From the UHGV virus genome UHGV-0071189: a stretch of 35,719 bases of DNA. One strand, 5' to 3'. The position numbers and the translations under genes were made by a program. The DNA comes from a virus. This document shows, piece by piece, positions 1-28,167 of the stretch (its first letter is position 1; each line of letters begins with the position of its first letter). The notes under the pieces are model-generated. The model worked only from the letters and a program-made list of their open reading frames with translations. It was not told the DNA's origin and ran no database searches.

Positions 1-30
1 CAAAGACGAGTAATCTGATCTAACTAAAAA

Positions 31-55
31 GGCCGCTCTGCGGCCTTTTTTCTTT
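31..55. repeat. attL core: 25-bp direct repeat GGCCGCTCTGCGGCCTTTTTTCTTT (contains terminator-like hairpin GGCCGC-TCTG-GCGGCC + T-run)
   Basis: Exact copy at 35665..35689; hairpin plus T-tract seen directly. Confidence 0.7.
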
Positions 56-190
56 CAATAACCAATTGATTTATAATGTTTTATATCTCTTCGTTCCACG
101 ATGTGTCCACATTTAGTGGGGGGAGGGGAGTAAGCCCGCTACATTGTGGGCTTTGTCTTATAGTCTGATCACTGTTTCAAGTCGGTGAGG

Positions 191-230
191 ACACCAAAAA
201 GAAAACCCGCAGTTTTTATGCTGCGGGTTT
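191..230 (-). terminator. Rho-independent terminator (stem 203..212/221..230, T-rich tract on minus strand) ending the hok transcript
   Basis: 10-bp perfect stem AAACCCGCAG/CTGCGGGTTT followed on minus strand by TTCTTTTTGGTGT. Confidence 0.5.
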
Positions 231-314
231 GTTTCATGTCTGTGAGATAGAGTGCCTTATCGACCTTACCCTGGCAACCGATTGACGGGGGATTGCTCCC
301 CCGTCGCGGTTTCC

Positions 315-455
315 TTACTGCTTACACTGTAAGAACGCCGCAAACTCCGCTCCCCAGAAGCTCATCCGTATTTCGCACAGTGAACCGTGCAGCATCCAGA
401 TGATGAGGATTGCCGTCACGCAGAACGTGATGGCCGTAAGCGATTTTTGCGACAT
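315..455 (-). CDS. hok: Hok/Gef-family type I toxin (46 aa, MSQKSLTAITFCVTAILIIWMLHGSLCEIRMSFWGAEFAAFLQCKQ)
   Basis: Own translation of minus strand; single TM segment followed by SLCEIR...E.AAFL.C signature of Hok proteins; GGAG 8 nt upstream of ATG; too short for the supplied ORF track. Confidence 0.7.
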   Translation of the reverse strand: MSQKSLTAITFCVTAILIIWMLHGSLCEIRMSFWGAEFAAFLQCKQ

Positions 456-585
456 AGCACTTGCTCCTTTTCCGGAGAGGCGCTAACCTTTCACTTGTCA
501 AGGTAATGCGGTTAGGGCCTCGGTTAAACAGAGATGTTTTCCGGGGCCTTTCCACATCTGGCCTTCGGGTATTCCCTCCGACCAT
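322..585 (-). CDS. mok-like overlapping reading frame (modulator of hok translation), tentative
   Basis: 87-aa ORF in another frame fully overlapping hok, as in hok/mok/sok loci; no independent sequence support. Confidence 0.3.
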   Translation of the reverse strand: MVGGNTRRPDVERPRKTSLFNRGPNRITLTSERLAPLRKRSKCYVAKIAYGHHVLRDGNPHHLDAARFTVRNTDELLGSGVCGVLTV

Positions 586-645
586 CAGCCGAAAGGCACC
601 CGCGCGTAATCTATCGCTTTTTTGTTAATCCGGCAATTCTGCCTG

Positions 646-906
646 TTAGTTCTGAGGTAAAGGCAAACTCATCTGATTGTTTCCCCTGTGTGAAGCTGGC
701 AGCTCATGCCACGGGATACCTTCTGAAGAGTGAACGGCGGAGGCGTGTTTTGATGTGAATTTATGGAAGGCTTCCAGTGTTGAGAAGCATACGCCGCATT
801 CCAGGTTGTTACACTGGTAATACTTTTGCCGCACGGTGTTTGAGTCATTTTCCGGACGACTTGTGCGGATACGGGCAGATGCGCCACAAAGCGGACAACG
901 GAACAT
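646..906 (-). CDS. ogr: Ogr/Delta-family zinc-finger late gene transcription activator
   Basis: N-terminus MFRCPLCG...YYQCNNLECG matches Ogr C-x2-C...C-x4-C zinc finger; position next to att as in P2. Confidence 0.8.
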   Translation of the reverse strand: MFRCPLCGASARIRTSRPENDSNTVRQKYYQCNNLECGVCFSTLEAFHKFTSKHASAVHSSEGIPWHELPASHRGNNQMSLPLPQN

Positions 907-1138
907 AGAGACCTCCCTTAACGTGGTGCTTCTGTTATTTTAAGTTCTACTAGCTCCGATTCCAACTGACTAAACCGCTTTGAGTTGAGGGGCTGACATT
1001 CTTATTATTCGCTTATCAAAGAATAGCTAGTCAAACCTGATACATTAAAATCAGCACGTTATTTTGATTGTGTGATATCATAACATTATGTTATTAATGC
1101 GTTAAATTGGGATATCTAATTCAGATTGTGAGGTATTT

Positions 1139-2308
1139 ATGGGAAAGAATAGTCAACGTAGGCGAGATAATAAAATTAAGCGAGAAAATGAGAAAAAAAG
1201 AAACTTAGCGGCAAAGATAAATAAAATGTTGTATATAAAGCCTGATATATTTTTTGATGAATCAGGTAATACTGGCGGAAATTTACTCGATCCATTGCAA
1301 CCTGTTTTTACCTTAAGTTCAAGTAGTATTAGTAAACAGGATGCGCTTAAGGCATTAGAACTAACCGGAAGCAAGTCTCCAACAGAAGCCCACTTTAAAA
1401 CTCTTAGACGTAGAAAATCTGGTCAGGATGGCATCATTAGGCTTCTTGAAAGCAAATATGTCAATGAAGAGAATGTTAAAATATACTTGGTCGATAAAAA
1501 ATACATGCTAACAGCAAAGATTGTTGATATTTTGATCGAGACGTGGTGCTCTAATAGAGGAATAGATCTTTATATAAATGGACAGAATCTAGCTCTGTCT
1601 AATGTTTACTATTTCTGTTTCCCTGCTTTCTGTGGGGAGGAAAAAACAGAGGTAATGTATCAGTGTTTTATGAATATGATCAGAAGCCAATCGACTGAGT
1701 CAATTGATGAATTTTACAGGGTAATTGATGAGTTAAAGATATGCTCAAGTGATAAGATATTCACAGATATAATAAACAGAATTAGTATTACCAGAAGCGA
1801 TATTGATGATATATTGGAAGGTGTTGAGAAAAGCACATTAGATCCATCTATACCAAGCCTCTTTAGACACTGTGTAGAATGGGGTAAATTATACCCTAAT
1901 GGTTTTTATATTAAGCATGACGATTCCAAAGCTATTACAGAGAAGAAAGATATTTTTGATAAATTTATGGATATATCAAAAATTACGGAGGCATATGGTT
2001 ATGATCGAAGAAAATTTGAATTGCCAATTAAAGCTCGTTCTTTGACATTCCATTCATCACAAGAGTATCCTCAATTACAAATTGTAGATATAGTAGCAAG
2101 TGCGGCTGCTTATTATGTTAACTGTCTAAAAAGAAATGACTTAGAAGATTATCTCTTTAAAGAACTTCAAAGAATAAAAATAGATAACTATTTTAAAAAT
2201 ATGGCCATTTGGCCTACAACATATGTTACACCTCAAGAATTAGGCACAATTTATACTGGTGGGCGAAACCCTGCAGATGGAGTCGCTGATTATCTTTCTC
2301 AATATTAG
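1139..2308 (+). CDS. AT-rich cargo protein, 389 aa, tentatively DUF3800-like with possible RNase H-like fold; moron between ogr and D
   Basis: N-terminal IFFDESGNTG and C-terminal QLQIVDIVASAA match the DE and QxxD motifs I recall for DUF3800; strongly AT-rich versus backbone; GAGGT RBS; opposite strand to flanking phage genes. Confidence 0.45.
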   Translation: MGKNSQRRRDNKIKRENEKKRNLAAKINKMLYIKPDIFFDESGNTGGNLLDPLQPVFTLSSSSISKQDALKALELTGSKSPTEAHFKTLRRRKSGQDGIIRLLESKYVNEENVKIYLVDKKYMLTAKIVDILIETWCSNRGIDLYINGQNLALSNVYYFCFPAFCGEEKTEVMYQCFMNMIRSQSTESIDEFYRVIDELKICSSDKIFTDIINRISITRSDIDDILEGVEKSTLDPSIPSLFRHCVEWGKLYPNGFYIKHDDSKAITEKKDIFDKFMDISKITEAYGYDRRKFELPIKARSLTFHSSQEYPQLQIVDIVASAAAYYVNCLKRNDLEDYLFKELQRIKIDNYFKNMAIWPTTYVTPQELGTIYTGGRNPADGVADYLSQY

Positions 2309-2330
2309 TAACTGGAGTTTTAATTAATAT

Positions 2331-2350
2331 GGCCGCGTTAGCGGCCTTTC
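2331..2350. terminator. Bidirectional terminator hairpin GGCCGC-GTTA-GCGGCC + TTTC between the cargo gene and D
   Basis: Perfect 6-bp GC stem, 4-nt loop, flanked by A/T-rich sequence; lies between convergent genes. Confidence 0.5.
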
Positions 2351-2399
2351 TAACTATGTTTATTGCTAGTACATATCTGAACTAATACATTTAAGACAT

Positions 2400-3509
2400 T
2401 CACGCTGTTTCTGCTATCCATTCCGGGATTTTTGCCTCAAGCTCAAGCTGCGTGGTAAAGCCGCTGTTATCAATGGTGTGCTCGGCTTTTGCAATAATCC
2501 AGTCCTGATTGTCGATGTCACTTTTGAAGCCTGTCACCGTGCCATGCATTTCGGGATAGAGTTCTGCACGTCCACGCGCCAGCGTGATGGAGAATGATGC
2601 GGCTCCGCGTTGTAGTTGCTGCCACTTTGCCGCCGCTGCGCGTCTTGCTGCCTGCTCGTTCTGATAAGTCTTGCGTAACACAAACACATTGCCTTCCGCG
2701 CCTTCCATATAATCACCTTCACGGCTGCTGCTTTTCTCCTTTTTGGGTTTTGGCGGTTTACGGCGTTTCACGCTGACTTTTTTCTTTTTCCCGTAATTAA
2801 GATCAAGCCAGTAGGCGCGTACCCCCGTATACGCCTCGCGGTCAGCAATACGGAACTGATGGCGATCGCCGCTGCTGCGTGTAATGGCGAACGAGGGCAA
2901 CGGCTGGCCCTGTGCGTTCACGCCACCACCTGGCATGATGAATAACAGATTGCCGCTTTTTACCGTGGTGATTGCGCCCAGCATTTCCGCCATGCGCGTA
3001 AGGAAGGACATATCGCTTTCTTCGGTCTGGTCGGCGTGGTCGATTTCGATATCCATCAGCATTTCGCTGATTTGCGGTTTCAGACCATACCGATGAGCGA
3101 TGGCGGATACCACACGCTCAACGGTCACATCATGCCAGGACACCTCACGTTTAACGTTAAATTCATCCCGAAAATCTGCGCTTCTGGCTGAAACAGTCAG
3201 CCTGTCCGGCGGTCCTTCGTGAGCGATTTCATCAACAATGTAAGTGCCTTTTTCTGTCAGCGGTTCTCCTTTCCAGCCAATGAGAACCGTCAGGCGCGCG
3301 CCCCGTGGCGGTAGCTGCAACTGACCATCCGCATCATCCAGCGTGATGGTGAGCTGGTCCGCCTCAAATCCCCGGTTGTCGGTCAGTGACAGGCTCATCA
3401 GGCGCTCTGCCACGCCTGACAGCGTTTTACCCTCCGCGAGAATATCAAAATCCGGCATTTTCACGGGGTCTGTGCCCTGACTGAGCAATTGCATGGTGCT
3501 GTCGGTCAT
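2400..3509 (-). CDS. D: Tail protein D (gpD, late control/tail hub protein)
   Basis: LSLTDNRGFEADQLTITLDDADGQL matches P2 gpD family; start taken at internal ATG 3509 with GGGAGGGA RBS (ORF track extends to 3641). Confidence 0.8.
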   Translation of the reverse strand: MTDSTMQLLSQGTDPVKMPDFDILAEGKTLSGVAERLMSLSLTDNRGFEADQLTITLDDADGQLQLPPRGARLTVLIGWKGEPLTEKGTYIVDEIAHEGPPDRLTVSARSADFRDEFNVKREVSWHDVTVERVVSAIAHRYGLKPQISEMLMDIEIDHADQTEESDMSFLTRMAEMLGAITTVKSGNLLFIMPGGGVNAQGQPLPSFAITRSSGDRHQFRIADREAYTGVRAYWLDLNYGKKKKVSVKRRKPPKPKKEKSSSREGDYMEGAEGNVFVLRKTYQNEQAARRAAAAKWQQLQRGAASFSITLARGRAELYPEMHGTVTGFKSDIDNQDWIIAKAEHTIDNSGFTTQLELEAKIPEWIAETA

Positions 3510-3666
3510 CTGTTCCCTCCCTGTGCGGCATGGTCGCATGTGCGTGCGGAGGGGGTTACTGCTTTTTGTTGTCGCCGTGGCGGGAGAACGTCGCAGGGGT
3601 GAGATTACGCGCGTGGTGGGTGATGATTGTTGCCGAATCATTTAACGGATACAAGGGGCTGAAGCT

Positions 3667-4851
3667 ATGAGTGAAACTCGTTTTCATGGTGCCCGTGTTA
3701 CGGAAAATACCGACCTGGTAACAGCGATTAACGATGTTGATTCCAGTGTTATCGGTATCGTGGCAACGGCGGATGATGCGGACGCGAAGCTGTTCCCGCT
3801 GAACAAGCCCACACTGCTGACCCGCGTCAATGACGTGCTGGGAAAATGCGGGACAACGGGGACGCTTTATCGTGCGCTTAAGGCCATTGCAGACCAGGTG
3901 AGCACAAAGGTGATCGTCGTTCGCGTGGCTGAACACAAAGAAGAAGACGGAAAGACGCAGGATCAACTGGTTATCGGTGGTTCTGAGGATGACGGCAGCT
4001 ATACGGGGATGTATGCGCTGCTTGTTGCAGAGCAGGATGAAAGCATCGGATACCGTCCGCGTATTCTGGCCGCGCCGGAGCTGGACACGGAGGCTGTAAC
4101 AAAATCCCTGTGCGTGATTGCAGGTAAACTGCGCGCGTTTGTGTATGCCTCATGTTACGGCTGTAACACGATGGCTGAGGCGATTACCTACCGCCAGAAA
4201 TTCAACGAACGTGAGGTGATGCTCTTATGGCCGGACTTCATCGCCTACAACCCGAAAAGTGGCAAAAACGAAACGTTCCCCGCGCCTGCCTATGCGTGCG
4301 GCCTTCGTGCGTACATTGACCATGAGCAGGGATGGCACAAATCATTGTCCAACGTTCCGGTTAAAAATGTGCTGGGGATGTCGAGGCATGTGTTCTGGTC
4401 GTTGCAGGCCGAAGACAGCGATGCCAACAGCCTCAACAACAAAGAAATCACGACCATTATTCGTCGCAACGGGTTCCGCTTCTGGGGCAACCGCACACCG
4501 GAAACGAACGCCTACATCTTTGAGGTGTATACCCGAACCGCACAGGTGCTGGCTGATTCAATTGCGGAAGCGCAGTTTGAAACCATCGACAGTCCACTGA
4601 CGCCTGCGAATGTGAAGGATGTTATCAGTGCCATCAGGGCAAAACTGGATTCGCTGGTTACTGCCGGGAAACTGATTGGTGCGGAGTGCTGGTATGACGT
4701 GGTGGATAACGGCACCACGAATTTACGTCAGGGACGTGTGCGTATTCGCTACAAATATACGCCTGTTCCCCCGCTGGAAGACATGGAGCTTTACCAGACG
4801 TTTACTGATGAATTCTTTGGTCCCGCATTTGCGGTGCTGGGAGGTGCCTGA
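3667..4851 (+). CDS. FI: Tail sheath protein FI
   Basis: FPLNKP, EQGWHKSLSNV, RRNGFRFWGNRT, YTPVPPLE motifs match P2 gpFI; 394 aa. Confidence 0.9.
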   Translation: MSETRFHGARVTENTDLVTAINDVDSSVIGIVATADDADAKLFPLNKPTLLTRVNDVLGKCGTTGTLYRALKAIADQVSTKVIVVRVAEHKEEDGKTQDQLVIGGSEDDGSYTGMYALLVAEQDESIGYRPRILAAPELDTEAVTKSLCVIAGKLRAFVYASCYGCNTMAEAITYRQKFNEREVMLLWPDFIAYNPKSGKNETFPAPAYACGLRAYIDHEQGWHKSLSNVPVKNVLGMSRHVFWSLQAEDSDANSLNNKEITTIIRRNGFRFWGNRTPETNAYIFEVYTRTAQVLADSIAEAQFETIDSPLTPANVKDVISAIRAKLDSLVTAGKLIGAECWYDVVDNGTTNLRQGRVRIRYKYTPVPPLEDMELYQTFTDEFFGPAFAVLGGA

Positions 4852-9261: not shown

Positions 9262-9291
9262 AAAACCGCTAATGGTCAGATTAGCGGTTTT
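9262..9291. terminator. Bidirectional terminator: perfect 12-bp stem AAAACCGCTAAT/ATTAGCGGTTTT, loop GGTCAG, between convergent U and invertase
   Basis: Seen directly; flanked by A-run and T-run; right arm overlaps the invertase stop codon. Confidence 0.6.
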
Positions 9292-9880
9292 CATTTTCCT
9301 GAGTCTGCCCGGTTGTTTCTTCAGTCTGTATATCGCCTACAGGGTGATAACGATAAATCGTCGATGTGCCAATGCCGTAAATTATTGCCAGTTGTTTTCT
9401 GTCGTGCCCGTTTTTGATTAGCCTTGCTATTTGCTCATGCTGTTCTTTTGTCAGCTTCGGTCGACGTCCGCCTGTGCGCCCCCTTGCGCGCGCTGCCGCC
9501 AGCCCGGCCAGTGTACGTTCAACAATTAATTCACGTTCCATTTCAGCCAGGGCACCCATCACGTGGAAGAAAAAACGCCCCATTGGAGAAGATGTGTCTA
9601 TGCTGTCGGTCAGACTGCGAAAATTAATCCCTCGCTCCCGTAGTTCCCCGACGAGAGAAATCAGATGTTTCATGCTTCGCCCGAGGCGATCCAGTTTCCA
9701 GACAACCAGCGTGTCACCTTTTTGAAGGCGCTTTAAAGCGCGTTTTAATCCCGGTCGGTCTGTCTTTGTCCCGCTTAATTTATCTTCAAATATTTGTTCA
9801 CATCCTGCACAAACAAGAGCGTTTCGTTGCAGGTCTGTATTCTGGTCATTTGTTGATACCCTTACATAGCCAATCAGCAC
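9281..9880 (-). CDS. Site-specific DNA invertase, serine recombinase of the Gin/Hin/Cin/Pin family
   Basis: LIGYVRVSTNDQ catalytic-serine motif, resolvase core and C-terminal HTH (GTSTIYRY); start taken at GTG 9880 with GGGAGA RBS (track start TTG 9898). Confidence 0.85.
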   Translation of the reverse strand: MLIGYVRVSTNDQNTDLQRNALVCAGCEQIFEDKLSGTKTDRPGLKRALKRLQKGDTLVVWKLDRLGRSMKHLISLVGELRERGINFRSLTDSIDTSSPMGRFFFHVMGALAEMERELIVERTLAGLAAARARGRTGGRRPKLTKEQHEQIARLIKNGHDRKQLAIIYGIGTSTIYRYHPVGDIQTEETTGQTQENENR

Positions 9881-9934
9881 ACTGAATCTCCCGTCCAAAA
9901 GCGCAAATCATGCCATGCAGGCCAGAAACGGCCA

Positions 9935-9960
9935 TTATTTAAAACCTCGGTTTACGAGAA
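9935..9960. repeat. gix/hix-like recombination site (right boundary of invertible segment), TTATTTAAAACCTCGGTTTACGAGAA
   Basis: Palindromic AAACC-TC-GGTTT core typical of Gin/Hin crossover sites; inverted copy at 12613..12638. Confidence 0.75.
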
Positions 9961-10656
9961 CTCGGCACAAGCGGGGAGAAAATACCGTTACTCAGTACAG
10001 CGAATACCTGGACTAATCGACAAACATTCAGCGGTGGCCTTTCTGGGGAACTGTCCGGCAATGCCGCTACTGCAACAAAGTTGAAAACAGCACGAAAAAT
10101 TGCTGGAGTTGGTTTTGATGGTTCTAGCGATATTTCAATTAGTGCCAAAAATGTCAATGCATTTGCACTCCGACAAACAGGTAATACTGTTAATGGTGAT
10201 ACATCCGTTGGATGGAATTGGGATAGTGGTGCATATAACGCCCTGATTGGTGGTGCATCTGCATTAATTCTTCACTTTAATATAAATGCTGGTAGCTGTC
10301 CTGCCGTACAATTCCGTGTGAATTATAAAAATGGTGGCATTTCCTACAGGTCGGCTCGTGATGGTTATGGGTTTGAATTAGGTTGGTCAGATTTCTATAC
10401 CACGACACGAAAACCTTCAGCGGGAGATGTTGGTGCATATACGCAGGCAGAATGTAACTCAAGGTTTATTACAGGTATTCGCCTTGGCGGCCTGTCATCT
10501 GTTCAGACATGGAATGGTCCCGGCTGGTCTGACAGGTCAGGTTATGTCGTTACGGGTTCAGTTAACGGAAACCGTGATGAATTAATTGATACAACACAGG
10601 CAAGGCCAATTCAGTATTGCATTAATGGGACGTGGTATAACGCGGGGAGTATTTAA
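9949..10656 (+). CDS. Alternative tail-fibre C-terminal coding segment (Hv'), silent in this orientation; no start codon of its own
   Basis: Frame open from just inside the gix site (stop TAA at 9940..9942 lies outside); encodes fibre-like sequence ...NAATATKLKTARKIAGVGFDGSSDIS... Confidence 0.7.
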   Translation, partial: GLRELGTSGEKIPLLSTANTWTNRQTFSGGLSGELSGNAATATKLKTARKIAGVGFDGSSDISISAKNVNAFALRQTGNTVNGDTSVGWNWDSGAYNALIGGASALILHFNINAGSCPAVQFRVNYKNGGISYRSARDGYGFELGWSDFYTTTRKPSAGDVGAYTQAECNSRFITGIRLGGLSSVQTWNGPGWSDRSGYVVTGSVNGNRDELIDTTQARPIQYCINGTWYNAGSI

Positions 10657-10658
10657 CG

Positions 10659-11192
10659 ATGATGCACTTAAAAAACATTACTGCTGGCAACCCTAAAACA
10701 AAAGAGCAATACCAGCTAACAAGGCAATTTAACATCAAATGGCTTTATTCAGATGATGGAAAAAACTGGTATGAGGAACAAAAGAATTTCCAGCCAGACA
10801 CTTTGAAAATGGTCTATGACCATAACGGCGTTATTATTTGTATTGAAAAGGATGTTTCAGCAATTAATCCGGAAGGCGCAAGCGTCGTTGAATTACCTGA
10901 TATTACAGCAAATCGCCGGGCTGATATTTCGGGGAAATGGATGTTCAAAGATGGCGTAGTGATAAAGCGAACTTATACCGAGGAAGAGCAGAGGCAACAA
11001 GCGGAAAATGAAAAGCAAAGCCTGTTGCAACTTGTCAGGGATAAAACCCAGCTATGGGACTCACAGCTACGGCTGGGCATCATTTCCGACGAGAATAAAC
11101 AAAAATTAACCGAGTGGATGCTCTATGCGCAGAAAGTCGAATCTACAGACACCTCCAGCCTGCCAGTAACGTTTCCCGAACAACCAGAATGA
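10659..11192 (+). CDS. Alternative tail fibre assembly protein (Tfa'), paired with the silent fibre tip
   Basis: 177 aa, same family and about half identical to the expressed Tfa at 11221..11748 (shared [28 protein letters not shown]). Confidence 0.8.
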   Translation: MMHLKNITAGNPKTKEQYQLTRQFNIKWLYSDDGKNWYEEQKNFQPDTLKMVYDHNGVIICIEKDVSAINPEGASVVELPDITANRRADISGKWMFKDGVVIKRTYTEEEQRQQAENEKQSLLQLVRDKTQLWDSQLRLGIISDENKQKLTEWMLYAQKVESTDTSSLPVTFPEQPE

Positions 11193-25162: not shown

Positions 25163-25589
25163 ACTCTCCAGCTCCTGTATCAATCAGATAATTTCACGAC
25201 GTCTTCCAGCTTATCGCCATCATCGACGGTCAGGCTCTTACGCAATCCCACTGCGCTGACTGCATGTTCTCGCCGCCTCAGTGCGATTTTGACGGCCTTA
25301 TCTGCTACCCCATCAAATCAAAAGTCCTCACGTCTTTTTCATGCTCAGCGTGAGAAATACAGCCATTCTGTTGTGTCGCTGCGACATCGTTCAGGGGATG
25401 CTATTTACCCCCTGAAACGCGGGCTGTTCCCCCGTCACCTGCGCGCAGAAAAAACGCGTTTTTTTGTGCACGCACGGATCCTTGACGGATCCAGTCGCCA
25501 CGCGGGCCGGAAGGGCAAAAAGTCGTTCAAAAAAATTATGCAAATTTGTGCACTATTGTGCAGATGCTGCGGATTATCTCGAAGCCATA

Positions 25590-25617
25590 TTGTGTATTAG
25601 CAAGTGATATGTATACT
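25590..25617 (+). promoter_or_regulatory. Candidate sigma70 promoter of the cargo operon (-35 TTGTGT, 16-bp spacer, -10 TATACT)
   Basis: Hexamers read directly, about 40 bp upstream of GTG start at 25660; not verified. Confidence 0.3.
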
Positions 25618-25659
25618 TTGCAATGAAGTAGTATAGATGTTTGTTAAGTAAGGTGAATT

Positions 25660-27036
25660 GTGAAAAAAATAGATAAAAAGGATGCAAGAAAACGCTTTTT
25701 ACGTGGTTGGATTCGCTTTTTAAAAGGCGTTGAGAGAAAAAATAAAAGAAGAATTAAATATAAAGCCTATGAAAGGTTACATTTTTCTGACGAAGTAACA
25801 CCAGTGAAAAGTCAGGTGGCTACTTTTATTGAAAGTATTTCATCCGTAAAGAAATATGATACTGCAACTCTTCGTCGCAAAGAAGATAGAATAATAATAC
25901 CTAAATATTTCGATTTGTTTGATCATCCAGAAAAATCTCTTTTGTTTATTCATGGTGTAACTAGATTGATTGCCAGGGGTAAACGTAAATCATATTTGCT
26001 TGATTATACTAAAAATAAAAAGCATTGTTTAGGTGCGGAATGTCTCCTTGGTGTTGCACTGAGCTCAGCCAAACGTCACAATATAAATTTAAAAGATGCT
26101 CAAGTACAACTTAATGGCATTTATCCGAAGGATGAAAAATATTTAGAAATTATTCGTGACATCGGGTTGGTTAAAGAAATAAATAAAGTGACGCCAGGGA
26201 AGGTGCATGATGAAACAGAAAAATCGAAAAAAGATAACCCTAAGAAAAGAATATTCTCTGCTGATAGTATCGGCAAGGAAAATGCGTCTGCATTTGCACA
26301 AGATACCAAAAATAGAATGTCTGAGAAATTCACTAATTATATAAACGAGTGTCTAAGTGATCATCAATTAAAATTAGTTAGCAAGGCAGAAAACCATCTA
26401 ACATCTTGCATGGGCGAATTACTTGATAATGCAGAGAGACATTGTGGGCTTGAGCAGCGTCCGCGTTGGTATTTGAGGGGGTTTGTAAATAATGGCTTAA
26501 AACAGCCAACATGTGAAATAGCTGTTTTTAACTTTGGAAAAACTATTGATGAAACTTTTTCAGGACTTTCTTTAGAACATTATTCATATAACAATCACAT
26601 AATCCCTTATGTGGAAAAACACATAAATAAAAAAGGGATGTTTAGAGAAGGTTTGATTACAGTCGCTGCTTTGCAGGGGCGGGTTAGTTGTAAAAATGAA
26701 ACGGAGACAGATAGTTCTGGTACGGGAACCATTGAACTATTGAAGTTTTTCCAGGATATGCATGATAGTTTAAAAGAACTATCCAAAGAACTAAGTGGAA
26801 ACATCAGAATGTCTTTAATTTCTGGATGCACACATATAAACTTTGATGGTTCTTATAAGTTGAAAAAGCAAACGTTAGATAACCAAAGTGACAAATTCAC
26901 TTATCCATTTAATAATACAGGGCTTGAATCTGAACCAGATCGTACCTATCTTAAGTGTATGCAGAAAGCCCGTTTTCCGGGAGTTATGATTAATATACGT
27001 TTTCCTTTACCGGAAAATGCAACTCAAAGAACCTGA
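25660..27036 (+). CDS. Cargo operon gene 1: 458-aa Lys-rich protein with possible GHKL / anti-sigma-factor-kinase-like ATP-binding motifs
   Basis: GTG start with AAGGTG RBS; ELLDNAERH (N-box-like, about residue 253), NFGKT and SGTGT at G1/G2-like spacing; AT-rich; family assignment is motif-based only. Confidence 0.6.
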   Translation: MKKIDKKDARKRFLRGWIRFLKGVERKNKRRIKYKAYERLHFSDEVTPVKSQVATFIESISSVKKYDTATLRRKEDRIIIPKYFDLFDHPEKSLLFIHGVTRLIARGKRKSYLLDYTKNKKHCLGAECLLGVALSSAKRHNINLKDAQVQLNGIYPKDEKYLEIIRDIGLVKEINKVTPGKVHDETEKSKKDNPKKRIFSADSIGKENASAFAQDTKNRMSEKFTNYINECLSDHQLKLVSKAENHLTSCMGELLDNAERHCGLEQRPRWYLRGFVNNGLKQPTCEIAVFNFGKTIDETFSGLSLEHYSYNNHIIPYVEKHINKKGMFREGLITVAALQGRVSCKNETETDSSGTGTIELLKFFQDMHDSLKELSKELSGNIRMSLISGCTHINFDGSYKLKKQTLDNQSDKFTYPFNNTGLESEPDRTYLKCMQKARFPGVMINIRFPLPENATQRT

Positions 27037-27047
27037 GGAATAGGTAA

Positions 27048-27392
27048 ATGAAAATGGCAAATATTTATATAGATTTCAATAAATTAGTTAAAGATGGCGG
27101 CAAGAAATTATTTGCTGGGCGTGATAATGGTCGCAAGGCATATAGTTTCTTTGGCATAGATCGCTTTACTTTTGATAACAATGATAGGATTTTTCTATCA
27201 ATTCCGAATGGTGTGGTTGTGTCAAGCTCATACTTTTTGGGTATGCTAGAGAATATATTGCCTCTTTTTTCATCTCCGAATGAATTTTATAGCAGAACAT
27301 CTTTAGATGGAGTGAATTATAAAGAAGGAATGCTTTCTGAGCTGGATAGGGCTGTGAGAAGAGGATTACATCGAAATGTTCCGTTCTTCTGA
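27048..27392 (+). CDS. Cargo operon gene 2: 114-aa protein, possible STAS-like (anti-sigma-factor antagonist-like) domain
   Basis: GAGGA RBS overlapping gene 1 stop; RIFLSIPNGVVVSSSYFLGML resembles the DSSG.L phosphorylation loop of STAS proteins; speculative. Confidence 0.55.
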   Translation: MKMANIYIDFNKLVKDGGKKLFAGRDNGRKAYSFFGIDRFTFDNNDRIFLSIPNGVVVSSSYFLGMLENILPLFSSPNEFYSRTSLDGVNYKEGMLSELDRAVRRGLHRNVPFF

Positions 27393-28167
27393 TTTGTGCT
27401 CTGTTTTTAAAATGACAGCATTGCCTGTCATTTTTTTTGTTAATATATCCGCTTGCTCTGCGACATATCCAGAAAGAACCGCGTCTAACATGGATTCGCA
27501 AAATTCAGAGTCTCACGTAATAGAACCAAAGAGTGGAAACATTTTTAATGCTGATATATGCATTGGAAAAAATAGCGATCTAAAATTATGCAATAGTTAT
27601 GAAAGGAAGTTTACACCGCACCTTCTTTATGATAAACCTGATAATTATGTTCTGAATGGATATTACCCCTCAACCTCATCGGGGAATCTCTATAATATCG
27701 TTAGAGTTCCTGAATCAGGACCTGAATGGTACTCTATAGCAATTTCAATTATTGCGCTAATTGCATCTGTAGGAGTTCCTTTGTGGCAGCATTATAAAGG
27801 AAGAAATGAAGCTATAAACGAAGGGTATTGGTTACGAGAAGTTATTCTCCCTAAAATTAATGGATTAGCTTTTGAAGTTACGGAAGATTTTAAGGATGCG
27901 ATGGGGCTTCCCCCTGATGAATTTATATCATTACTAGATAGCCAACTATTTTCAAAGCTTGGGGAGTTAAGGGATTCATTATATCTATTTAAGGGTTTTT
28001 CTAAGTTGGAAAAAGATATTGAGTCACTTGATGGTATCTGTGATTTATTTGAGCAAAAGGTTTCTGATAATATTGATTCATCTATTGATACAAGGATTTC
28101 TGATGTATCAATCTTTCATGCTAGCTTAATAAGGGAGCTCATGAAAATGCATAGAAAAATAGGGTGA
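27376..28167 (+). CDS. Cargo operon gene 3: 263-aa predicted lipoprotein/membrane protein (candidate effector)
   Basis: N-terminal signal peptide with ISAC lipobox; internal hydrophobic helix WYSIAISIIALIASVGVPLW; overlaps gene 2 by 17 nt. Confidence 0.55.
   Translation: MFRSSDLCSVFKMTALPVIFFVNISACSATYPERTASNMDSQNSESHVIEPKSGNIFNADICIGKNSDLKLCNSYERKFTPHLLYDKPDNYVLNGYYPSTSSGNLYNIVRVPESGPEWYSIAISIIALIASVGVPLWQHYKGRNEAINEGYWLREVILPKINGLAFEVTEDFKDAMGLPPDEFISLLDSQLFSKLGELRDSLYLFKGFSKLEKDIESLDGICDLFEQKVSDNIDSSIDTRISDVSIFHASLIRELMKMHRKIG

Follow-up and report, generated by a model that had tools for sequence, protein, structure and literature searches.

What is an AT-rich gene for a DUF3800 protein doing between ogr and D at the left end of a P2-family prophage? 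The question is raised by the viral genome UHGV-0071189, a stretch of 35,719 nucleotides (nt) that we call the window, which starts with the end of ihfA and passes from there into the prophage. The gene (1139..2308, + strand) encodes 389 amino acids (aa) from an ATG start and is identical (100%) to RefSeq entry WP_000517778.1. The segment 949-2399 that holds it was acquired horizontally and forms a one-gene moron in a variable ogr-D slot of a P88-like (Xuanwuvirus, P2-family) prophage. With a probability of roughly 55%, we propose that its product is a self-contained metal-dependent nuclease serving prophage-encoded defence, a proposal in which the defence role and the substrate are the parts that we infer.

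Comparison with phage P88 delimits the insertion. The prophage backbone shares 94-97% identity with P88 and with further members of Xuanwuvirus/Gemsvirus; window and P88 are collinear to position ~948 and again from ~2400, where 1.45 kb of the window replaces the ~45 bp ogr-D gap of P88. This cargo segment (~949..2399; G+C content, GC, 0.333) is absent from P88 and from most Escherichia coli prophages with the same backbone. After ihfA come a Hok-type toxin gene (-), the ogr/Delta-like zinc-finger late activator (646..906, -) as left neighbour of the DUF3800 open reading frame (ORF; +), the tail/late control gene D (2400..3641, -; longest ORF 413 aa) as right neighbour, and then sheath, tube and other tail genes (+). 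The GC of the DUF3800 ORF is 0.332 (0.26 at third codon positions, GC3) versus 0.513 in the rest of the window and 0.546 (GC3 0.587) in D. An earlier note on this DNA, which had proposed that the gene was acquired horizontally, is upheld by this composition and by a cassette that recurs at ~80% identity in other genera and unrelated contexts. In a collection of 5426 complete E. coli genomes, the backbone query was matched by 1458 and the DUF3800 cargo was found in 36, that is in ~2.5% of the backbone-matching genomes, always as one copy adjoining D and always at least 99.9% identical. By these counts, the P2 family does not conserve the gene at this position, which answers the objection that the earlier note had raised against its own idea.

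The occupancy of the slot was estimated from an evenly spaced sample of ranked backbone-matching E. coli genomes. About 25 slots were empty, 2 held the DUF3800 gene and about 16 had other content, so that ~40% of the sampled prophages have the slot occupied, mostly by proteins of unknown function. The other cargos comprise a DUF2971 protein, a 500-aa PIN (PIN_4) protein, a ParA-like ATPase, a SEC-C-motif protein, unknowns of 132-478 aa, an IS30 insertion and, in phage 500465-2, a 340-aa protein with a weak HEPN match, to which no homology of the DUF3800 cargo was found. The IS30 insertion excepted, they are single genes in either orientation. The DUF2971 cargo matches the PADLOC candidate PDC-S31 (E 6e-27), and PADLOC returned no match to a validated defence system among the sampled ogr-D cargos. 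We newly document the ogr-D junction as a slot for single-gene cargo in P88-like phages, and it is a ready source of further candidates because it is so often filled, and mostly by proteins without assigned function.

Every occupied slot that we compared (window 910-1000 and 2370-2400; loci L001, L002 and L066-L072 of our collection) has common junctions whatever its cargo, ~70 nt long next to ogr and 30-90 nt long next to D. The ogr-side junction carries a promoter-like TTGGAr-N17-TArAAT facing ogr, which in the window is the putative site TTGGAA-N17-TAAAAT (937..965, - strand), recognised by a promoter scan and by alignment of the left junctions. The D-side junction ends in ...TAATACATYTAAGTTGCTCAC, and TCTAAGTT lies at both edges of occupied slots and as a single copy at the empty P88 site. 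These junctions fit an exchange of cargos by recombination within a common framework, in which empty slots would have arisen by deletion, or alternatively a site-specific event. A transposon reading, based on the 'TTTAAG' at both edges, was rejected, since this sequence belongs to the junction framework common to all cargos.

The family to which the protein belongs is clear. Its match to Pfam DUF3800 (PF12686) spans model positions 2-148 of 149 with an E-value of 3.5e-10 and 41.2 bits against a gathering cut-off of 21; it is the sole Pfam match of the protein, which RefSeq likewise names 'DUF3800 domain-containing protein'. The earlier note had recognised the family from its motifs, namely IFFDESGNTG (residues 37-46) and QLQIVDIVASAA (residues 312-323), and the profile search agrees with it, as does conservation scored over 33 sequences down to 24% identity. 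D40, G43, E83, K120, E134, D235, W248, D261, P296, S307 and D317 are invariant in this set, and E41, D130, S263 and Q314 nearly so (E41 and Q314 in at least 90%). An exhaustive HMMER search collected 1050 clusters at 50% identity, 194 of them at E 1e-30 or better, and almost all are single-domain proteins of 355-370 aa that start near query residue 35.

A confident AlphaFold2 model built from 30 homologues (predicted local distance difference test, pLDDT, 84.4; predicted template-modelling score, pTM, 0.82) places these residues in a fold. After a Lys/Arg-rich N-terminal helix (residues 3-31 in the model; residues 1-31 with 12 Lys/Arg, 1139..1231, +), the model places beta-1 (36-42), beta-2 (56-62) and beta-3 (113-119), an all-helical insertion (residues ~120-251; 1496..1891, +) that holds the conserved D130, E134 and D235, and then beta-4 (256-261), beta-5 (299-305) and a long helix (311-331). 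The predicted core is a mixed beta-sheet (beta1-3, alpha, beta4, alpha, beta5) that resembles solved RNases H, in line with the RNase H-like fold suggested in the earlier note, and the best structural matches of the model are RNases H2/H3, not transposases. Foldseek searches against PDB and BFVD returned no significant match, with RNase HII in the top PDB rows and two DUF3800-like phage proteins in the top viral rows, and two profiles found no sequence-level match among solved structures. In the model, the codons of D40-E41 (1256..1261, +; the DE of FDESGNTG) fall at the end of beta-1 and specify predicted metal-binding carboxylates, those of H260-D261-D262-S263 (1916..1927, +), with the invariant D261, at the end of beta-4, and those of Q312-L-Q314-I-V-D317 (2072..2089, +), the QxxD motif with the invariant D317, at the start of the C-terminal helix. 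We take this arrangement of D40/E41, D261 and D317 to be the DEDD layout of RNase HII. As the relatives begin near query residue 35 and reach 355-370 aa, the helical insertion is family-wide, whereas the basic N-terminal helix marks a sub-clade of 390-400 aa. We define here this 'long' free-standing DUF3800 architecture of ~360-400 aa, an RNase H-like core with an inserted helical domain.

The gene appears equipped for its own expression. The coordinates, strand arrangement, ribosome-binding site, motifs and hairpin reported by the earlier note are all borne out by the sequence. A Shine-Dalgarno GAGG (1130..1133, +), which reads GGAGG in related cassettes, lies 5 nt 5' of the ATG. In homologues down to 42% identity the N-terminus is conserved, with M1, N4, S5 and R9 nearly invariant, and from Enterobacterales to Vibrio and Halomonas the Lys/Arg-rich residues 1-31 retain their character and some of their sequence; because of this conservation, the ATG of the long form was accepted as the start. 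A candidate extended -10 element, TG-A-TATCAT (1073..1081, +), reads TGATATTAT in Klebsiella-type copies, and a promoter scan offered an alternative, TTGAGT-N17-TATTAT (980-1008, +). Between the convergent DUF3800 and D genes, 22 nt past the DUF3800 stop, lies the GC hairpin GGCCGC-GTTA-GCGGCC (2331..2346, +; to 2350 with the adjoining TTTC), with a 6-bp stem and a 4-nt loop. The hairpin that the earlier note had called a terminator is thus present, but its T-run is weak. It is a probable terminator, and the same hairpin stands at the cassette end in Klebsiella-type copies, there with a longer T-run; by consensus it would be a weak intrinsic one, and because of its short T-run a terminator scan called it on the - strand only.

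The gene travels as a portable cassette (975..2349, +) made of ~165 nt of upstream DNA, the ORF and the hairpin. Comparison of the window with related loci by blastn traces this homology, at ~80% identity, from 975-992 to 2349 in six loci (L006, L023, L029, L030, L031 and L033), and outside E. coli the cassette occurs in Klebsiella, Kosakonia, Enterobacter and Pantoea among quite different neighbours. In a qualitative survey, homologues were located with few exceptions in islands beside known defence genes, in P2/P4 hotspots of phages and satellites, or in integron cassettes. In a Klebsiella ssrA island, the gene stands with a BrxC/BrxD-family-like protein and a DEAD helicase, and with an AAA ATPase and HNH pair (Septu-like); in an Aeromonas integrase island with TIR, CHAT-like and Hachiman genes; on metagenomic contigs, including the chromosome of a Methyloprofundus metagenome-assembled genome, with an MmeI-type (type IIG) restriction-modification enzyme and an AAA_13 ATPase. 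McrBC accompanies it in K. michiganensis, a PIN_12 protein and a P4-type primase in Kosakonia, and a tail-protein gene, together with ApeA-HEPN and a helicase, in Pantoea. A Photorhabdus prophage and an IMG/VR contig (L050, L088) carry it in the classic P2 gpA-portal hotspot, and in Shewanella it is a lone gene beside an insertion sequence. Alteromonas has a tandem paralogue: in Alteromonas sp. KUL49 (L038 5938-8353), the family member is followed by a 376-aa DUF3800 protein (39.6 bits to PF12686).

Relatives in Vibrio, Alteromonas, Halomonas and Shewanella (L039, L041, L043, L038, L022 and L046) are integron cassettes, as judged from the stop codon, which runs straight into an attC or attC-like site, either VCR-like or a 77-nt attC-like palindrome (for example L038 7129-7205). 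No attC follows the stop of the window copy, whose ORF ends in the terminator hairpin. An Alloalcanivorax locus has two matches to sRNA-Xcc1 (L035 4035-4122 and 11078-11163), an RNA family linked to integron attC sites. A more distant DUF3800 protein (348 aa, 26.3 bits) sits in the Z/fun slot of Escherichia phage 899. There (L004 2318-5029) it follows a 461-aa protein without Pfam or PADLOC match and itself shows a faint match to the PADLOC candidate PDC-M04A; the pair may be a two-gene system.

The analysis establishes the insertion, the family membership, the RNase H-like fold of the model, the conservation of acidic residues, the portability of the cassette and the defence-type neighbourhoods. 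Catalysis, substrate, expression in the lysogen and a protective phenotype are what we infer from there, and they combine into a simple scheme. In the lysogen, the DUF3800 gene would be transcribed from its own promoter, and the protein would work without partners as a nuclease dependent on Mg2+/Mn2+. When another phage or mobile element infects the cell, it would cut nucleic acid, either that of the invader or that of the host (abortive infection), and the protection of the lysogen would protect the prophage as well. Sensing and nucleic-acid binding could be the tasks of the inserted helical domain and the basic N-terminal helix. As to the substrate, the resemblance to RNases H2/H3 and the links of the family to retrons, Cas12a2/a3 and Cas13 point, speculatively, to RNA or RNA paired with DNA as most plausible. 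The RefSeq family assignment, the RNase H-like prediction and the link to mobile elements and defence were already known, the latter two from the literature. What is newly surveyed here is the distribution of relatives over P2/P4 hotspots, defence islands and integrons; on this basis a defence role is likely, if by no means assured.

Several results weigh against this scheme. The protein matches PHROG 12991 (E 7e-187), a family of unknown function; no NCBIfam model matches the protein, and PADLOC-DB v2 returned 0 families for it at E up to 10. A sequence link to RNase HII was absent both from a search with Pfam RNase_HII at E up to 10 and from an hhalign comparison with E. coli RnhB (0.3% probability), and that the four carboxylates form one metal site is suggested by topology and conservation. 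The two promoter candidates are consensus matches. In the searchable literature, we found no experimental data on free-standing DUF3800 proteins, and one study that purified Csx32, a CRISPR-associated DUF3800 protein, assigned no activity to it. Guilt by association is also circumstantial, since hotspots and integrons carry non-defence cargo too, such as partition systems and toxins.

Four other explanations come out weaker on the same evidence. The one that survives best, although unlikely, sees in the gene an addiction module, in which a nuclease toxin is held by an unrecognised RNA or small-protein antitoxin and stabilises the prophage, island or cassette. Integron arrays are rich in toxin-antitoxin cassettes, and the prophage end already bears a hok/sok-type module. 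About 165 nt of upstream non-coding DNA move with the gene, and DUF3800 genes elsewhere are linked to 11 structured RNA motifs of unknown role (PMC5737381). Rfam 15 includes the corresponding families (DUF3800-I to -XI, drum and skipping-rope), yet none matched the window at 1-4000 with E up to 10, and no DUF3800-associated motif reached the gathering score in 16 related loci. The 186-nt upstream region folds no more stably than shuffled sequence (z -0.24), so that neither a structured leader nor a partner RNA was considered further. Between clades the flanks show no conservation beyond promoter and terminator or attC, and no conserved small partner ORF appears in the loci examined. Indeed, no partner gene of any kind is common to the homologue loci whose neighbours were examined, and no reverse transcriptase, cas gene, TPR domain or kinase lies in or next to the gene or in those loci.

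The type-2 RNase H-like fold of the model would also suit an enzyme of direct benefit to the phage, either an auxiliary RNase H that removes primers or R-loops in phage replication or transcription, or a counter-defence that destroys retron multicopy single-stranded DNA (msDNA) or guide RNAs. Such a task is compatible with the co-occurrence of DUF3800 and loci for retrons or CRISPR, systems in which the key molecules are RNA or hybrids of RNA and DNA (PMC7736814, PMC10910872). We nevertheless regard it as distinctly unlikely: a gene found in so small a fraction of backbone-matching genomes, and replaced by unrelated genes in others, opposes the late genes in orientation and has its own signals, while most homologues reside in non-phage islands and integrons beside defence genes rather than in phage replication modules.

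Still more doubtful is a selfish mobility enzyme, a transposase-, resolvase- or homing-type nuclease that would carry its own cassette from one hotspot to another. In six contexts the cassette ends are sharp, and hairpins (TCCGCT...AGCGGAC) bracket the Klebsiella-type copies. The same hairpin and the junction framework, however, also flank unrelated cargos and are found where P2 late operons end; both therefore belong to the slots and not to the DUF3800 gene. The gene is single-copy in each of the 36 E. coli genomes, the window shows no convincing cassette-specific terminal inverted repeats or target duplication, and the marine relatives are moved by integron attC sites; nor, as noted above, are transposases among the best structural matches. 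At the far end of the scale, a decaying or non-expressed passenger is very improbable: in the window copy the canonical right-hand hairpin is gone, that on the left is degenerate relative to Klebsiella-type cassettes and the terminator T-run is short, but against this stand an intact frame, nearly unchanged across the 36 genomes and their different lineages, the full set of invariant family residues, and an intact Shine-Dalgarno sequence and start codon.

The bracketing hairpin deserves a description in its own right. In its 22-nt form it reads TCCGCTYYTGRCACRRAGCGGA, with 23-25-nt TCCGCT...AGCGGAC variants, and we located it at L006 7790-7812 and 9271-9293, L023 7832-7856 and 9269-9293, L001 3052-3071 and in the IMG/VR loci L090-L169. 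It also stands 3' of the HEPN-like cargo of phage 500465-2 and is missing from the window. At least 120 viral stretches contain it. Among the 80 loci that were read, 23 have it within the tail-fibre-to-sheath (Z/fun) interval or at its edge, and 15 of these show both flanking genes; 2 have it 50 nt past D, and 1 between gpA and portal. Its role may be that of an element at the end of late operons, marking where hotspots begin or end.

Returning to the proposed defence nuclease, its scope may be wider than one prophage. We tentatively suggest, as a hypothesis less secure than the role proposed for the window copy, that long free-standing DUF3800 proteins form a new family of one-protein antiviral nucleases, in which the insertion would detect a sign of infection and the core would then cleave RNA or RNA-DNA hybrids, and which would be carried interchangeably by P2-like phages, P4-like satellites, islands and integrons. 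If true, this would provide the first function for DUF3800 and explain the recruitment of the domain as an accessory by retron type VII, Cas12a2/a3 and Cas13 systems. The domain is widespread and recurs beside retrons, Cas12a2/a3, Cas13 and orphan structured RNAs, with ~1050 clusters for the long form alone. The window copy offers a tractable entry point, being a single gene with its own expression signals and clear candidates for catalytic residues, in a prophage of well-studied E. coli including O104:H4.

Elsewhere in the window, at the very end of the prophage, a Hok/Gef-type toxin ORF of 46 aa (315..455, -) shares positions with a match to sok-like antisense RNA at 442-601 (Rfam RF01794; E 6e-9; 48.4 bits, short of the gathering score of 59). 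This Hok/sok module, a type I toxin-antitoxin system, is also present in P88 and its relatives. The length of D differs by annotation: it is a single 413-aa ORF in the window and 366 aa in P88, and many RefSeq genomes list it in two pieces, a 266-aa 'VgrG/Pvc8 family' protein and a small pseudogene fragment, an inconsistency of annotation (window versus L005/L065). In an annotation comparison, a related prophage of O104:H4 strain 2009EL-2071 diverges from the window beyond ~9 kb. A serine invertase (Resolvase and HTH_7 domains; 9281..9898, -) adjoins a C-terminal fragment of a tail fibre (gp37_C) and a gene for tail-fibre assembly, and the region 9281-11192 resembles a host-range switch that works by inversion. 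In the O104:H4 relative, this place is taken by a serine O-acetyltransferase. Between gpA and portal, in the old/tin position of P2, the window has a hotspot (25289-28167, +) filled by a further cargo block with ORFs of 103, 458, 114 and 263 aa, none of which matched Pfam or PADLOC, and the O104:H4 relative has a ParM-type partition system there.

How does the cargo compare with what is known? Within Pfam DUF3800, the protein passes the family hidden Markov model and has both the N-terminal DE and the C-terminal QxxD. It departs from the family in that the 149-position model is spread over residues 37-325, owing to the helical insertion of ~130 residues, and in the basic N-terminal helix added in the 390-400-aa clade. 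To the type-2 RNases H (RNase HII, HIII and H2A; PDB 1io2, 4py5 and 3puf), it aligns structurally at 9-13% identity and without detectable sequence kinship, and these enzymes lack the large helical insertion and the C-terminal extension of the DUF3800 protein. Housekeeping RNases H are moreover core genes, whereas the DUF3800 gene is mobile cargo.

Previous work predicted an RNase H fold for DUF3800 and linked the domain to mobile elements as well as to the loci of retron type VII, Cas12a2/a3 and Cas13 (PMC7736814, PMC10910872, PMC12669027, PMC13594972). The accessories of retron type VII, of Cas12a2/Cas12a3 (TPR-DUF3800) and of Cas13 (CASK, Csx32) belong to the same domain family as the window protein and have the same predicted RNase H fold, and they have been tied to immunity via RNA or RNA-DNA (PMC7736814, PMC10910872, PMC13594972, bioRxiv 10.64898/2026.08.25.746378). 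Retron-linked members lack the Q of QxxD (PMC7736814), which the window protein has as Q314, and since PADLOC gave no match, the protein is not close to the retron-linked models.

The closest parallel to the locus itself is found in the hotspots described for P2-like phages, old/tin between gpA and portal and Z/fun between the tail-fibre genes and sheath (Rousset 2022, PMC9122126; iLund4u preprint 10.1101/2024.10.15.618418), and a DUF3800 gene is listed among the cargos of the main P2 hotspot (Rousset 2022, PMC9122126, supplementary file 6). Like them, the ogr-D slot is a variable interval between conserved genes that takes up alternative, mostly single-gene, AT-rich cargo with defence-type domains, and relatives of the DUF3800 gene occupy the classic hotspots in other P2-like phages. 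Unlike them, it lies between ogr and D, in P88-like phages.

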